64,000 nucleotides of DNA from Escherichia coli (GTDB lineage Bacteria; Pseudomonadota; Gammaproteobacteria; Enterobacterales; Enterobacteriaceae), in assembly GCF_041886205.1 (NCBI RefSeq), contig NZ_CP169029.1, one strand, 5' to 3'. The position numbers and the translations under genes are program-made. The first letter of the stretch is position 1, and the number at the start of each line of letters is the position of its first letter. Shown piece by piece: positions 11,694 through 18,400 of the stretch. A model generated the notes under the pieces. The model did not search any database, was not told the origin of the DNA, and worked only from the letters and a program-made list of their open reading frames with translations.

Positions 11694-13511
11694 ATGTATA
11701 ATTTTATCACTATAATGTATGATGTCTTTTCATGTTTTGGTGTTCTGGCTAAAAACCAGAATACCCGTGACATCCGAAATATTAAAAATTTTTCCTCACA
11801 TCAATATTCACTGGGCGACATGTTTGATGAATTAATAAACATTATTGATAAAGAACAAGTATTGAGTACAGAACAACGAAAAGTTATATTTAGGAGATAT
11901 GAAGATCTCTATGTTAAGCTAATGCACTATTCTGTTTTTACAGACCAAACACATCAAATAATAAAACAAAAATATTTTAATGACATTGTACCAATGATTC
12001 TCGCACTCGACATCAGGAACACATATCGCCCGGATAATGAGATGGCATTTTACTATCATATTCATTCTTTTCTCACTCAGATACCGGATAATGAGGATGA
12101 TATATATCATGCTGCAAGGACATATCTGCGAAATTACGTTAAGTTATGTTTATCCGGATACACACCAGCGAATGCGCATTTCAAAGATATCTTTGATGGC
12201 GTATATGAATTCATTCGTAATATTCGCAAAAACAGTACACCAGGAAAAACAAAACTTATCGCAACTATCAACACATGCAAAGAAACCTGTAAACATCTGC
12301 TTTATTTAAGTAATGAAGACAAGGAAAAAATAATTTCTGACTTAGATAAAGTTCAGGTTGCATGTTATTATCTCACTATATTACTGGCTTTCGAAAGACG
12401 AACTTCATTAACAAGCACCCTGGCAACTTTATATAAAATGCTGATAAGCGAAAGAGAAGTTTCAGAATATGAATGCCAGTTATTATATTTAACCAACCCA
12501 ATAGATGTAATGAATATACTGAACAAATACATATATTACTTTCCTAATGAAAACTCACCATTTTATACACTGAAAATTGACAGTGCATTATCGTGGGATG
12601 CCATTGACGCAATACGAGACTATAGTATTTCTGATATTTATCTTTATCCTGAACAAAAAACAATAAATTGTGTCGTTGAGATTGAAAACATTGTCTTTGG
12701 CGGTTACATTTATACATTGAACAACGGCGTCACATTACAAAACATAGAAAACACTTTAAAAGATTCTTCATGCCATTATGTCTTAAATGGCTATACAGAA
12801 TTTGTTAACTGTTTGATACAACTTACTTCAGGAAAGACTGAAAGTGTTCATCGCACCATCAATAAACTGAACTATGAGAAATTACCTTTTGGATTTATCA
12901 TTGCCGCGTTTGCTATACTAAAGATAGCATTTAAAATAAAATTCAGTAAAAATCATGTAAATATCCGAGCATTATTAAATGACATCAATTATTTTATGAC
13001 TTATCAGGGCGAGTCCATTAACCTTATTTCACTGGATCACGAATACCCAGAGTCCTGTCTTCAAAATGACACAAACACATATTTATTAGGAAGAGTAATA
13101 TTTCTGTATAACTCAATGATTTATAAGTTCATAAACTGTCAGGAACATGAAACCAATAACATTCACTCAGCTATGATAAATAACCTATTACAGGAAGTTG
13201 ATATAGCCCTTGGTAAAATAAATAACATTATAGACAGCAGAAACATATCAGCCCCCCATGAACTGGCAAATATTCTTACCCGCGAAAAAATACTTACAAC
13301 ACGGGAAAAAAAAGGAAACCTGATAAGCCTGTTTGATGGATTCACTTTATTCCATTGTGTTGGAATGATAACCTTTCTTATCCATTATCTCAGAACACCT
13401 GAAGAAAAAGTTGAAAATATATTTATGTTATATGGTGCAGATAAAAACAATAAACTACGCAGAAGACTGATTTATGACGCACTAGGAATAATTCAGTCTC
13501 AGCAGGAGTGA
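11694..13511 (+). CDS. Hypothetical 605-aa protein, AT-rich cargo gene in the int-alpA hotspot; no recognisable catalytic motif
   Basis: Long uninterrupted ORF in very AT-rich DNA; SD aaaggaga 5 nt upstream of ATG; TATAAT at 11651-11656; convergent with integrase. Confidence 0.7.
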   Translation: MYNFITIMYDVFSCFGVLAKNQNTRDIRNIKNFSSHQYSLGDMFDELINIIDKEQVLSTEQRKVIFRRYEDLYVKLMHYSVFTDQTHQIIKQKYFNDIVPMILALDIRNTYRPDNEMAFYYHIHSFLTQIPDNEDDIYHAARTYLRNYVKLCLSGYTPANAHFKDIFDGVYEFIRNIRKNSTPGKTKLIATINTCKETCKHLLYLSNEDKEKIISDLDKVQVACYYLTILLAFERRTSLTSTLATLYKMLISEREVSEYECQLLYLTNPIDVMNILNKYIYYFPNENSPFYTLKIDSALSWDAIDAIRDYSISDIYLYPEQKTINCVVEIENIVFGGYIYTLNNGVTLQNIENTLKDSSCHYVLNGYTEFVNCLIQLTSGKTESVHRTINKLNYEKLPFGFIIAAFAILKIAFKIKFSKNHVNIRALLNDINYFMTYQGESINLISLDHEYPESCLQNDTNTYLLGRVIFLYNSMIYKFINCQEHETNNIHSAMINNLLQEVDIALGKINNIIDSRNISAPHELANILTREKILTTREKKGNLISLFDGFTLFHCVGMITFLIHYLRTPEEKVENIFMLYGADKNNKLRRRLIYDALGIIQSQQE

Positions 13512-13698: not shown

Positions 13699-14901
13699 TT
13701 ATTTATTCACAATTTGAGACATCACATAATCCGCCCATGCCTGCATCATCGGTACACGCTGCTCCAGTAGATCAGTACGATGATATGCCGCCTCAACCTT
13801 ATTTTTCAGCGTATGAGCGAGCGCCCTTTCCGCCAGATCCCGCGAATACCCCTGTTCACTACACCAGTCCCTGAATGTTGAGCGAAAACCATGTGCCGTG
13901 GCAACTCGCCCCGGAATGTCACTGACGGCTTTCTTTTTACGCAGAAAACTTGTCAACACCATATCGGAAAGGATCTGCTGCTTTCTGGGTGAAGGGAACA
14001 CCAGTTCATCATGCAGGCCACGTATATTTTCCAGAATGTAAATAGCCTGCCGGGATAAAGGAACACGATGCTGTAGCCTGGCTTTCATTCTTTCTGCAGG
14101 TATAGTCCATACCCGCTTATGAAAATCAATTTCAGCCCAGCGCATTCCCCTGGCTTCGCCCGAGCGAGTTGCTGTAAGTATCACCATTAATAACAGTGCG
14201 CGGGTAACATTATAAGGTTCATCACTATACACACTGGTCGCCACAAAAAGCGGTAACTGCCTCCAGGGCATTGCTGGTTGGTGTTCATCACGTCCTCTTG
14301 TCTGCTGAGGAAGCAAATGGTCAACCACATCAACAGGATTTGCCACACAAAAACCGTGCGCCCATCCCCACTGCATAACAACATGAATGCGCTGTTTAAC
14401 CCGGCTTGCCGTTTCTGACAAGGTTAACCAGACTGGACGCAGTGTTTCTGCCACGTCCGCAGCCGTAATCGAATCCAGCGTTTTTGCTCCCAGTTGAGGA
14501 AACGCGTAATTCTCAAGCGTCGATAACCACTGCCTTACATGCTTTGGATTTTCCCATCCTGGAGACAATTCTGCATGTACACGCCTGGCTGCATCGGCAA
14601 ATGTTGGGATAACGACTTTCTCAGATTCAGCCTTTTTAATCTCCAGAGGATCATCACCTGCAGCAAGTTGCTCTCGCATTATCCGGGCAGTACGTGCAGC
14701 TTCAGCAATACTGACCTCTGGGTAAGTTCCCAATCCAGCATTACGTCTTTTTTGTGTCACCGGACTTACATAACGAAAAACCCATTTCCCCCGCCCCTTT
14801 ACTGAAGAAGGATGAAGGGTCAGTCCGGTAATTCCCCCATGGGGCAATGGTTTGTCATCAGGTTTGATATGTCTTGCTTTCGTATCCGTCAATACTGCCA
14901 T
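13699..14901 (-). CDS. int: Tyrosine site-specific integrase, P4/CP4-57 IntA-like
   Basis: 400-aa ORF; N-terminal LTDTKARHIKP...FRYVSP arm-binding-type region and C-terminal catalytic motifs (HGFRSTFRDW, LAH, Y in EAAYHR). Confidence 0.9.
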   Translation of the reverse strand: MAVLTDTKARHIKPDDKPLPHGGITGLTLHPSSVKGRGKWVFRYVSPVTQKRRNAGLGTYPEVSIAEAARTARIMREQLAAGDDPLEIKKAESEKVVIPTFADAARRVHAELSPGWENPKHVRQWLSTLENYAFPQLGAKTLDSITAADVAETLRPVWLTLSETASRVKQRIHVVMQWGWAHGFCVANPVDVVDHLLPQQTRGRDEHQPAMPWRQLPLFVATSVYSDEPYNVTRALLLMVILTATRSGEARGMRWAEIDFHKRVWTIPAERMKARLQHRVPLSRQAIYILENIRGLHDELVFPSPRKQQILSDMVLTSFLRKKKAVSDIPGRVATAHGFRSTFRDWCSEQGYSRDLAERALAHTLKNKVEAAYHRTDLLEQRVPMMQAWADYVMSQIVNK

Positions 14902-15044: not shown

Positions 15045-15525
15045 GATTTATTTCAGGCGGTCCCCCTCACCGCCATATTTAAAGAAGAGCTCGTACGAAA
15101 GTACGGGCTTTTTTTTCGTATATTGCACACACCGGGGGGATGAGAATCCCCGACCGGGGGTCGACAACTGGCGGCAGCCAGTTGGACAGACCGTGAACGC
15201 AGTGAGCGGGCTGCCCGCAGGGCGAGCGAAGCGAGTCAATCCCCCCCTCACCGCCATATTTAAAGAAGAGCTCGTACGAAAGTACGGGCTTTTTTTTTCG
15301 TATATTGCACACACCGGGGGGATGAGAATCCCCGACCGGGGGTCGACAACTGGCGACAGCCAGTTGGACAGACCGTGAACGCAGTGAGCGGGCTGCCCGC
15401 AGGGCGAGCGAAGCGAGTCAATCCCCCCCTCACCGCCATATTTAAAGAAGAGCTCGTACGAAAGTACGGGCTTTTTTTCGTGTATTGCACACACCGGGGG
15501 GATGAGAATCCCCGACCGGGATACT
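15045..15525. repeat. Tandem direct repeat array, unit about 181 bp, about 2.7 copies
   Basis: Units begin near 15061, 15241 and 15421 with near-identical sequence; each has a terminator-like hairpin plus T-run (gagctcgtacgaaagtacgggcttttttt) and hairpins GGGGAT-GAGA-ATCCCC and CAACTGGC-N4-GCCAGTTG (loop differs between copies, stem conserved). Confidence 0.9.
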
Positions 15526-15528
15526 TAG

Positions 15529-16215
15529 TTAATGCAACGGTTCACTCTTTGTCGCCGCGACTAATGGGCGAATTTTGTCACGAGTCTCCCAGACCGGAGG
15601 GATTTCCTCCAATTTAGTGACAGAAGCTCGTACAAAAGGCACTCGTGCAAGAGTCATAATCGTATCCAACCAACGGTCACGAATAATGCGATCCGCCCTT
15701 TCATGACTCGGGTCATCCAGCTCAATAACACAGACTATTTTATTGTTCTTCTTTGAAACCAGAACATAATCCATTGCCATGCCATTATAAATTGCAAAGA
15801 AACGCTTTCTTTCTTCTTCGCTAAACTCAGGTTGTTCTGGATAGTTGAGCAAGCGCCCCAGAGAGACCTGGCAATGGATATGACAATAATGTCCAAACCA
15901 TTTCTCCAGATTATCGAAATACATTTTTTCACAACGCGTGATTAACCACTCTTTTCCTTCCAATAAAATACCTTCGGCAACCATTCCCTGAAATAACTCA
16001 TCTCGTTCTTGCCAACGAGAGTCACGATAGGTTTTCTGCGGTATATAGGTCCTTGTCGACGACTTAGCAGCAGGGGAAGTTGCAGATGAAGGGACTGGTT
16101 GCGATTTAGCGATGATTACCGATGAGGCAACTTTTCGGAGTGTCAATTTTCTGGCAACAGCAAAACCGGCGACAAATGCAATTGTCAAACAAGTTACAAA
16201 AGCCATAAAGCTCAT
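15529..16215 (-). CDS. Membrane-anchored protein with DUF2726-like (nuclease-fold) C-terminal domain
   Basis: 228-aa ORF: N-terminal hydrophobic helix, Ser/Pro-rich linker, C-terminal globular domain; family call from recalled similarity only. Confidence 0.45.
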   Translation of the reverse strand: MSFMAFVTCLTIAFVAGFAVARKLTLRKVASSVIIAKSQPVPSSATSPAAKSSTRTYIPQKTYRDSRWQERDELFQGMVAEGILLEGKEWLITRCEKMYFDNLEKWFGHYCHIHCQVSLGRLLNYPEQPEFSEEERKRFFAIYNGMAMDYVLVSKKNNKIVCVIELDDPSHERADRIIRDRWLDTIMTLARVPFVRASVTKLEEIPPVWETRDKIRPLVAATKSEPLH

Positions 16216-16805: not shown

Positions 16806-17729
16806 TTAACTGTATGCATGCAGCGTACGTTGGCAAAGTGCCGAACGTACGCAATCCTCTTTACCGAACCGGACGATCCCAACCATTTCATCTTCTTCGA
16901 AACGTTCCAGCGCGTCACTTAATCCGGAGCACACGCCGCGAGGCAAATCGCATTGCGTGATATCACCGTTGACGATAACTGTCACGTTCTCCCCGAGGCG
17001 GGTTAAAAACATTTTCATTTGCGCGGCAGTCACATTCTGCGCCTCGTCAAGAATGACGACTGCATTTTCAAAGGTACGTCCACGCATATAGGCGAAAGGC
17101 GCAATTTCCACCTTCCCTATTTCCGGTCGCAGGCAGTACTGCATAAAGGAAGCCCCTAAGCGCCGGACCAGCACGTCGTAAACCGGGCGAAAATAGGGAG
17201 CAAACTTTTCTGCGATATCTCCAGGTAAGAAGCCAAGATCTTCATCGGCTTGCAGAACTGGACGGGTGACGATAATCCTGTCGACATCCTTATGTATCAG
17301 GGCCTCTGCCGCTTTTGCTGCGCTGATCCAGGTTTTTCCGCACCCGGCTTCGCCCGTGGCGAATATCAGCTGCTTACTCTCAATAGCCTTCAGATAGTGC
17401 AATTGCGCTTCATTACGCGCGAGGATGGGCGAAGTATCGCGACTGTCGCGGGCCATACCAATGGCTTCTACGCCGCTCATTTGCACAAGCGAGGTGACCG
17501 ATTCTTCTTCACGCTGCTTATGGCTGCGCGAATCCCGTCTCAGCACACGTTTTGCCTCGCGACGAGCTTTGATCACTGCTTTTTGTCTTCCCATGGAGAG
17601 CACCTTGAGTTGTTTGTATTCATCACACGCGCCGTTGGCAGCGCGATTATGCGCACGAACATCAGAGGGTTGGCTTCCTTGTAAGCCATAGTTTGCTTTT
17701 GGATAAAATGCCGAAAAACGGCTACGCAC
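16806..17729 (-). CDS. phoH: PhoH ATPase core ORF; N-terminal extension appears frameshifted, so the full gene would span 16806..17869
   Basis: ORF with Walker A GEAGCGKT; separate upstream ORF 17573..17869 (MVTSYTGHVLDNQ...) with SD ggag overlaps it in another frame. Confidence 0.8.
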   Translation of the reverse strand: MRSRFSAFYPKANYGLQGSQPSDVRAHNRAANGACDEYKQLKVLSMGRQKAVIKARREAKRVLRRDSRSHKQREEESVTSLVQMSGVEAIGMARDSRDTSPILARNEAQLHYLKAIESKQLIFATGEAGCGKTWISAAKAAEALIHKDVDRIIVTRPVLQADEDLGFLPGDIAEKFAPYFRPVYDVLVRRLGASFMQYCLRPEIGKVEIAPFAYMRGRTFENAVVILDEAQNVTAAQMKMFLTRLGENVTVIVNGDITQCDLPRGVCSGLSDALERFEEDEMVGIVRFGKEDCVRSALCQRTLHAYS

Positions 17730-18017
17730 ACCGTTTGCGGCGTCGGTAACACGAGTAAAGAGAGGAAGTGAGAAAAATACAGAGTGACGAAGTTGCTACC
17801 GGAGGAGAAAACTCCGCGAGTGGTGGCGCGTTGATTATCTAAAACATGTCCAGTATAGGACGTTACCATCCGCGATCTCCATAGTGACTGACTATCACTG
17901 CCGGGAACTTCCGCTGCTACTTAATAAGTACAACAGATCTCGCATTTATTGCAACAATATATTTACTTATATTTAACTATAAAACACCATTTTAGTGACA
18001 TTAGTTTCTACTGGAAA

Positions 18018-18070: not shown

Positions 18071-18400
18071 GCATCAGGCATCAGTGCACGATCGCCGGAT
18101 GCGGCGTAAACGCCTTATCCAGCCTACCAAACCCGCACCGATTATAGGCATGATAAGACGCGCAAGCGTCGCATCAGGCATCAGTGCACGATCGCCGGAT
18201 GCGGCGTAAACGCCTTATCCAGCCTACCAAACCCGCACCGATTGTAGGCATGATAAGACGCGCAAGCGTCGCATCAGGCATCAGCGCACGAACGCCGGAT
18301 GCGGCATCAACGCCTTATCCCGCCTACCGAACCCGCACCGATTGTAGGCATGATAAGACGCGCAAGCGTCGCATCAGGCATCAGCGCACGAATGCCTTAT
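18071..18400. repeat. BIME/REP array (three units of about 110 bp containing GCCGGATGCGGCGTAAACGCCTTATCC)
   Basis: Three near-identical copies of canonical REP palindromes between phoH promoter and efeB. Confidence 0.85.

Follow-up and report, generated by a model that had tools for sequence, protein, structure and literature searches.

Genes with an in-frame internal start, of which infB is the classic example, give rise to two isoforms of one protein. In the set of such genes described by Meydan et al. from Ribo-RET experiments, the downstream Shine-Dalgarno (SD) sequence and ATG are conserved and synonymous variation is reduced around them; phoH of Escherichia coli K-12 is one of the genes listed there as having a conserved internal start in frame, with a local drop in synonymous variation (10.1101/520783). 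A second group of described systems comprises mdtU-mdtJI, toiL-topAI, and tnaC-tnaA, where a leader open reading frame (ORF) of ∼10-30 codons with its own SD and ATG stands upstream of the regulated gene; Rho attenuation dependent on the upstream ORF (uORF) has been discussed for mdtU-mdtJI and toiL-topAI (PMC7815308). In this work we analyzed phoH, a core Pho-regulon gene whose function is still unknown, in a 64,000-nt stretch of the E. coli contig NZ_CP169029.1 (RefSeq assembly GCF_041886205.1), referred to as the window; all coordinates are those of the whole window, and phoH and its leader lie on the minus strand. A preliminary description had read the locus as a phoH frameshifted relative to the 354-codon K-12 form, being either a pseudogene or frameshifting allele, or a homopolymer sequencing error. 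The window carries a natural split allele, in which an intact 262-codon phoH stands behind a structured leader. We think that this leader is probably translated, and that the transit of ribosomes through it matters and the peptide does not.

Compared with the internal-start genes, the window phoH has the conserved internal SD and start codon and the reduced synonymous variation around them, but its two starts are out of frame (275 nt apart) and do not give two isoforms, and the long part is without protein-level selection. With the mdtU-mdtJI type of leader it shares the SD/ATG leader ORF upstream of the gene, here conserved and under selection, a C-rich and G-poor tract, and (in K-12) an RNA 3' end within the leader. 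It is unlike that type in the length of the leader ORF (84-98 codons), in having no conserved peptide or sensing codons, and in overlapping or fusing to the gene. A link to Rho or to phoH expression drawn from this likeness would be one of sequence-level analogy.

The functional gene in the window is the 262-codon phoH (17594..16806, minus strand, 262 codons plus stop), which encodes a P-loop ATPase of the PhoH family and has its own invariant SD (AAGGTG, 17606-17601, 6 nt 5' of ATG 17594) and ATG. The ORF list gives this frame with a GTG start (17729..16806, minus strand), and the preliminary description was right in saying that this PhoH core ORF overlaps a 98-codon ORF in a different frame; in the PhoH frame, a stop lies 68 codons 5' of ATG 17594. 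The 262-aa product matches PF02562 over residues 57-261 (model positions 2-204 of 205, 256.9 bits against a cut-off of 27, E = 1.5e-76) and the NCBIfam PhoH equivalog NF007827 over the entire model (1-253 of 253, 511.6 bits vs. a cut-off of 380). The Walker A (GEAGCGKT) and Walker B (VVILDEAQ) motifs are intact in the translation and invariant in a 33-sequence alignment. The DNA is 100% identical to the locus of strain 6EVA, where the RefSeq coding sequence (CDS) WP_000533533.1 has the same extent as 17594..16806; protein and coordinates are identical to this RefSeq/PGAP entry, and the leader ORF is usually unannotated, with a few hypothetical-protein calls. The 262-aa PhoH is found on at least 1000 contigs, and its core differs from that of K-12 (b1020, NP_415539.1, PHOH_ECOLI) by one residue (G to S). 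An intact gene that passes its family models and equals a RefSeq product is not a pseudogene.

We collected the locus from one genome per species, which gave 80 Enterobacteriaceae loci. Counted from the first residue of the 262-aa form, PhoH is 92-100% identical across the 80 species, and the coding signature begins exactly at ATG 17594 (81 Enterobacteriaceae sequences). Diversity at the first, second, and third codon positions is 0.053/0.022/0.392 in the PhoH core. Relative to ATG 17594 it is 0.21/0.21/0.19 from -30 to -1 nt, 0.01/0.002/0.205 from +30 to +59 nt, and 0.02/0.02/0.42 further on, with a third-position diversity of 0.07 in the first 10 phoH codons.

The 98-codon ORF was found as first described, with a good SD: GGAG (17880-17877) lies 7 nt upstream of ATG 17869, and 98 codons are followed by TGA (17575-17573), so that the leader ORF (17869..17573, minus strand) extends 22 nt into phoH. 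Codons 1-92 of the 354-codon annotation in K-12 are its homologue, but the window ORF uses the -1 frame beyond about codon 31. Counted from ATG 17869 through the stop at 16806, the span is indeed 1064 nt, 1 nt short of K-12 b1020 (1065 nt, 354 codons), and the distance from ATG 17869 to the phoH ATG is 275 nt (2 mod 3) in the window and 276 nt, in frame, in K-12. Both alleles have the same locus, Pho box (PhoB site), and upstream ATG/SD; they differ in that the K-12 upstream ATG is in frame and fused to phoH, whereas the upstream ORF of the window is separate and terminates inside the gene. The difference from K-12, already considered as a possible real allele, is of that kind: the window is net one base shorter, and this separates the upstream ORF from the PhoH core.

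The one-base difference was placed by a pairwise alignment with K-12 and by an alignment of 13 Escherichia, Citrobacter, and Salmonella sequences. Both show a one-base gap vs. K-12 at or beside a T5 run (17777-17773), which is contained in a hypervariable C-rich, G-poor tract of ∼45 nt (∼17795-17751, minus strand); the tract carries ∼14 substitutions vs. K-12 between flanks that are 99-100% identical. A single-base deletion had been proposed for the ORF overlap (17573-17729), which holds a T5 run (17718-17714) and A5 runs. We found the overlap equal in length to that of K-12, with a single substitution (17728), and the net loss upstream of it. The T5 run at 17718-17714 is a second true indel site in Escherichia: K-12 and the window have T5, E. 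coli E69, E. albertii, and E. whittamii have T4, and the site is one base shorter in Citrobacter and Salmonella. The genus therefore shows three states, namely T4 with a full patch (275 nt, split), T5 with a full patch (276 nt, fused, as in K-12), and T5 with a patch one base shorter (275 nt, split, as in the window), and the E. coli forms differ through indels at short T runs. Two other origins were tried and rejected: an inversion of the divergent patch, whose reverse complement is by inspection unlike the other allele, and phase variation at the T runs, which are only 4-5 nt long and whose alleles are fixed and identical across ∼1900 genomes.

Allele searches were performed against 5426 complete E. 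coli genomes. The 70-nt window patch was present in 1964 genomes and the K-12 patch in 3417, and an 84-nt stretch consisting of the window patch and two downstream single-nucleotide polymorphisms was identical in 1940, including CFT073, 55989, O111:H8, and O103:H2. In a span check with the 298-nt K-12 leader as query and rows sampled evenly down the ranking, all 38 sampled rows of at least 98.3% identity span 298 nt (a band of 3417 genomes), and all 21 sampled rows of 91-92% identity span 297 nt (a band of 1999 genomes). From this sample and the counts of the identity bands, ∼63% of E. coli are therefore fused and ∼37% split. Both forms occur in phylogroup B2 (JJ1886 fused, CFT073 split); the patch of the window is matched in Escherichia sp. 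E1V33, and Escherichia sp. MOD1-EC7003 has a patch similar to that of K-12. We concluded that the fused/split difference is an old, recombining polymorphism of E. coli. A reference phoH with the same two-ORF organization had been named beforehand as an argument against a frameshift; K-12 is without this organization, whereas a third of E. coli have it.

The same two arrangements recur across Enterobacteriaceae. The block TGGAGATCGCG(A/G)ATGG around the leader ATG is nearly invariant in ∼80 species, the phoH AAGGTGC is invariant in a 40-sequence alignment, and 81/81 sequences have both AAGGTG and the ATG that follows it. Fifty-six sequences, including K-12, are fused, with an ATG-to-ATG distance of 270-282 nt (0 mod 3) and an ORF of 352-356 aa; they come from Enterobacter, Klebsiella, Kosakonia, Buttiauxella, Phytobacter, Pluralibacter, Pseudocitrobacter, Lelliottia, Cedecea, Franconibacter, Yokenella, Trabulsiella, and some Escherichia. 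The remaining 25, including the window, are split, with a distance of 2 mod 3. With 275 or 272 nt, the leader ORF comprises 97-98 codons and stops at a shared TGA, 22 nt into phoH; this form was seen in E. coli E69, E1V33, E. albertii, E. whittamii, E. cloacae M-7, S. enterica arizonae and diarizonae, and the Citrobacter freundii, amalonaticus, and sedlakii groups. At 278 nt (Kluyvera, Pseudescherichia, and relatives) it has 84 codons and ends 23 nt 5' of the phoH ATG. Nearly all sampled Citrobacter are split, two isolates labelled Citrobacter sp. being fused; C. koseri was not scored as its contig ends before the leader start. A spacing of 1 mod 3 was found in none of the 81 sequences; in this third phase translation would end 140 nt or more upstream of phoH. 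A second conserved ATG (ATGGAGATCGCGGATGG) was observed at 17882-17880 (minus strand), overlapping the leader SD; it opens a 15-codon frame (MEIADGNVLYWTCFR) with no obvious SD.

Selection keeps the leader ORF stop-free in fused and split forms without constraining its amino-acid sequence, as judged from the aligned sequences. Codon periodicity is absent from the 92-98 upstream codons: the three codon positions have diversities of 0.329/0.323/0.331 in fused species and 0.273/0.261/0.262 in split species. Within genera, gap-free alignments gave leader substitutions of 34/32/37, 35/31/39, 23/27/38, and 39/48/46 by codon position, vs. for example 18/6/185 in the core. The ORF is nevertheless open in 81/81 sequences, running past the phoH ATG or ending at most 23 nt short of it, vs. 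3-7 stops in the other frames, and in shuffled leaders the frame was open in ∼2% of trials per sequence. Among 429 within-genus substitutions no nonsense change was observed vs. 14.7 expected (P = 4e-7), and the within-genus leader alignments contain no frame-breaking indels (0 gap columns). A conserved SD and start together with an ORF held open by selection are what is expected of a uORF.

The annotation records bear little trace of the leader ORF. The patch region is without an annotated feature in 80/80 sampled rows of both allele classes, and among the records examined the 354-aa model was met only in that of K-12 MG1655. In strain VE-T9 the leader ORF is annotated as the hypothetical protein WP_040062665.1, and this exact protein is found on 89 contigs. 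In the leader frame, codon 17737-17735 is CAA in the window and TAA in K-12 and Nissle. The E. coli Nissle derivative EcN_Sk combines a window-type patch with the K-12-type TAA, which shortens the leader ORF to 44 codons (482-616 of the record); PGAP calls this stub a hypothetical protein, and the TAA version occurs in at most 24 genomes.

To describe the leader RNA, RNAalifold was run on 40 non-redundant leaders, and pairs were counted against controls with slid partners and 500 shuffles. Eleven helices were predicted. Paired cells amounted to 97.1% vs. 28-52% with slid partners, and cells changed on both sides numbered 94 vs. 13-24, a count reached by 0/500 shuffles. Hairpin h4 (17819-17798, minus strand, as are the hairpins below) has a UCGCGGA/UCCGGU stem with a variable loop, 97.5% of cells paired, and 3/6 pairs compensated. 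In h6/h7 (17744-17707, 6 + 4 bp), which contains the codon CAA 17737-17735 and the indel site T5 17718-17714, 6/6 outer pairs are compensated, with CG to UA changes in 12-14 sequences. Hairpin h9/h10 (17651-17621, CAU...CGCGCU-loop-GGCGCG...AUG) has 98-100% of cells paired, and within it h10 (17645-17628) shows 5-12 compensatory changes in each of three pairs. Hairpin h8 (17688-17671, UGGCUU-ACAAGG-AAGCCA) is 99.2% paired and nearly invariant: four of its six pairs never vary, no pair has a compensatory change, and covariation is thus uninformative. The model also contains a predicted long-range pairing of GAUCGC (17877-17872) with GUGAUC (17576-17571), which is invariant, and a predicted masking of the phoH SD by pairing of CACU (17786-17783) with GGUG (17604-17601), four pairs with one-sided changes at most. 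A search of the Rfam 15 covariance models over 17562-17984 gave no match at E <= 1. An internal promoter at the conserved CATAAT 17651-17646 was considered but seems less likely; the promoter scan called none there, and the bases belong to helix h9.

The loop/stem junction of h8 has a GGA (ACAAGGA spans the loop and the start of the 3' arm), and GGA is also found at both SDs. GGA in hairpin loops or at an SD is typical of CsrA-bound leaders such as that of pgaA (PMC4052769), and h8 may be compared with these at motif level only. Our literature search returned nothing tying phoH to CsrA, Rho, or a leader peptide. In the accessible parts of the E. coli CsrA CLIP-seq supplements we found no phoH entry, and in those of the Salmonella CsrA CLIP-seq the sole term match was a description of phoL.

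Upstream of the leader, a Pho box was read directly at 18035-18018 (minus strand, TGTCATCACTCTGTCATC), with two TGTCA-type direct repeats 11 bp apart; the same sequence is the K-12 PhoB site 5' of phoH found by ChIP-seq (PMC10294691). The preliminary description had placed such a box next to the ORF; it is present, but ∼150 nt upstream of the ATG. A -10-like TAAAAT downstream of the box is compatible with a Pho regulon promoter in which the Pho box replaces the -35 element. A consensus scan gave two promoter-like hexamer pairs on the minus strand, one P1-like (TTTCCA-17-TAAAAT, 18017..17989), directly 3' of the Pho box, and one P2-like (TTTATA-16-TATATT, 17983..17956), both upstream of the leader ATG 17869. 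These pairs may correspond to the phoH P1 and P2 promoters reported by Kim and colleagues in 1993. Between promoter and gene there is a conserved leader of ∼390 nt, transcribed from the Pho-box promoter, with covarying hairpins and the C-rich, G-poor tract. The mean composition of this tract in 40 diverse species is 34% C and 8% G (G range 0-18%), the sequence itself not being conserved; in the window, 17784-17745 contains 13 C and 3 G. By its composition and poor structure the tract is rut-like and might serve as a Rho attenuator. By Term-seq, a dominant K-12 RNA 3' end, unexplained in the source, was mapped at 1085072 (plus strand) under two growth conditions (PMC7815308). This position corresponds to about 17789 of the window, 80 nt into the leader ORF, 9 nt 3' of h4, and on the border of the C-rich tract.

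We weighed these data against several other explanations of the locus. A homopolymer sequencing or assembly error in the window, suggested by the T5 run that adjoins the difference from K-12, has next to no probability and is refuted by the population data: the sequence is identical over 84 nt in 1940 complete genomes that were obtained independently, by many laboratories and on many platforms, and is reproduced between assemblies, the indel sits in a haplotype with ∼14 linked substitutions, and the same 275-nt spacing occurs in other species. A frameshifted pseudogene should be broken within the part selected as protein, by a private or recent lesion. Here the indel lies ∼60 codons 5' of the start of the coding signature, 1940 of the 5426 genomes have the same allele, and the split form is found in other species. 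It is rather unlikely that the long 354-aa isoform is important, K-12 types making both 354 and 262 aa and the window having lost the long form with functional consequences. The long ORF is in frame in 56/81 species and 63% of E. coli, and Ribo-RET classes the K-12 downstream start as internal to a longer gene. The extension, however, is without amino-acid constraint, with codon-position diversity flat within and between genera, and without a Pfam or NCBIfam domain; the fusion is missing from almost every Citrobacter sampled, from the two representatives of Salmonella, from Kluyvera, and from 37% of E. coli; and in the records examined RefSeq leaves the long form unannotated outside K-12. An AlphaFold2 model of the K-12 long form from the 33-sequence alignment (mean pLDDT 35, the core likewise low) was discarded as uninformative.

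Two further explanations concern the leader ORF itself. Stops are avoided in it beyond chance (P = 4e-7; ∼0.02 per sequence in shuffles), within-genus indels never break its frame, its strong SD and ATG are conserved, and the third phase occurs in no species, all of which makes it very unlikely that the leader is a purely non-coding structured RNA with an untranslated 17869 ORF whose openness is incidental, as the absence of codon periodicity, the covarying hairpins, and the usual lack of PGAP annotation might suggest. We regard as highly improbable a programmed -1 frameshift joining the 98-codon ORF to PhoH, by which split strains would still make the long form. Relative to the leader ORF, the PhoH frame is indeed -1, the two frames stay open together between 17795 and 17573, and A_AAG occurs at 17698 and at 17581, the latter ∼20 nt past the SD-like AAGGTG and two codons short of the leader stop; yet the leader frame contains no slippery X_XXY_YYZ heptamer, the PhoH frame of S. 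diarizonae is open only 13 codons upstream of the ATG, and the unconstrained extension sequence implies no evident benefit of joining.

For the split allele with a translated leader, we infer a mechanism that works through coupling to the phoH start or protection from Rho. Ribosomes would load at 17869 and translate through the leader. In doing so they would probably melt its structure and deliver or expose the phoH start, by termination-reinitiation or SD unmasking, and would probably also keep Rho away from the C-rich tract, allowing Pho-induced transcripts to reach phoH. In fused alleles, ribosomes would carry on into PhoH; in split alleles they would terminate 22 nt past or 23 nt before the phoH AUG, and reinitiation or de novo initiation at the invariant SD/AUG would yield the 262-aa PhoH. 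We propose that indels in the T runs can toggle between two tolerated phases because only transit matters. More tentatively, and with somewhat less than even confidence, the 5' third of the reference phoH may be, instead of ordinary coding sequence, an undescribed riboregulatory leader present throughout Enterobacteriaceae, with its covarying hairpins, rut-like tract, and CsrA-like hairpin. In it, translation would be selected per se, to couple ribosomes to the phoH start, to block Rho, or both, and T-run indels would let the frame toggle freely between fused and split, within E. coli as well as from genus to genus.

Several points weigh against the split allele with a translated leader as we interpret it. 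The SD-masking and long-range helices, being invariant, are uninformative for covariation, and the single-sequence fold of the window leader (z = -1.46) is not unusually stable. Translation from ATG 17869 is deduced from sequence conservation alone. The Nissle-type truncation is without obvious harm, and long-range translation of the leader is therefore not essential. The overproduced 39-kDa PhoH was reportedly sequenced at its N terminus in the 1993 work of Kim and colleagues; if so, the fused form is a real K-12 protein. We infer that the K-12 internal start is Met93 (equivalent to 17594), the codon being unstated in the Ribo-RET text. The K-12 3' end at 1085072 is without a Rho score (PMC7815308). 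The accessible parts of the supplements of the Ribo-RET preprint, TRAINSPOTTER, and TetRP contained no phoH entry.

For annotation, the window phoH should be treated as an intact 262-codon gene and not as a pseudogene. The 354-aa K-12/UniProt model represents an arrangement absent from a third of E. coli and several genera, and its extra 92 residues have no protein-level constraint. The question of a pseudogene or an error is ordinary and largely explained away. A conserved, translated, and structured leader of 390 nt implies an unexamined layer of post-transcriptional control in a core Pho-regulon gene, and the natural fused and split alleles are ready material for testing it. An ORF can be kept by selection on translation alone, and such an ORF misleads gene callers and frameshift detectors. 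A long, structured, and translated leader whose frame relation to its gene is evolutionarily fluid is apparently an undescribed case.

Other features of the window were noted around phoH. An intrinsic terminator of phoH (16792-16766, minus strand) consists of an 11-bp stem and a T run after it. The Yersinia small RNA (sRNA) 251 family Ysr251 of Rfam matches 16811-17004 (plus strand), in antisense orientation to the phoH 3' end, with 188.5 bits vs. a gathering threshold of 100; the extreme conservation of the phoH CDS, opposite which the model was built, may be all that this match reflects. Between efeB and the phoH promoter lies a tandem array (18071-18391) of a 100-nt unit in 3.2 copies with 96% matches, which matches Rfam naRNA4, a nucleoid-associated RNA derived from REP elements, on both strands. 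Directly downstream of phoH, where K-12 has pgaD, the window has a DUF2726 gene (15529-16215, minus strand); the pgaABCD region for the biofilm polysaccharide PGA is absent from the phoH-adjacent position in the window lineage and also in 6EVA and 2014C-3075. Downstream of the DUF2726 gene is a tandem repeat (15062-15520) of a 182-nt unit in 2.5 copies with 98% matches, and collinearity with the closest complete genome, that of strain 6EVA, ends exactly at 15062. Beyond this repeat the window has a tyrosine integrase gene (13699-14901, minus strand) with Arm-DNA-bind_3, Phage_int_M, and Phage_integrase domains, and a 605-aa ORF (11694-13511, plus strand) without a Pfam family, where 6EVA instead has a tRNA-Ser gene next after the repeat; no tRNA was found in the window between 13000 and 17000. 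The arrangement suggests that the region of the integrase and the 605-aa ORF is a strain-specific island insertion.

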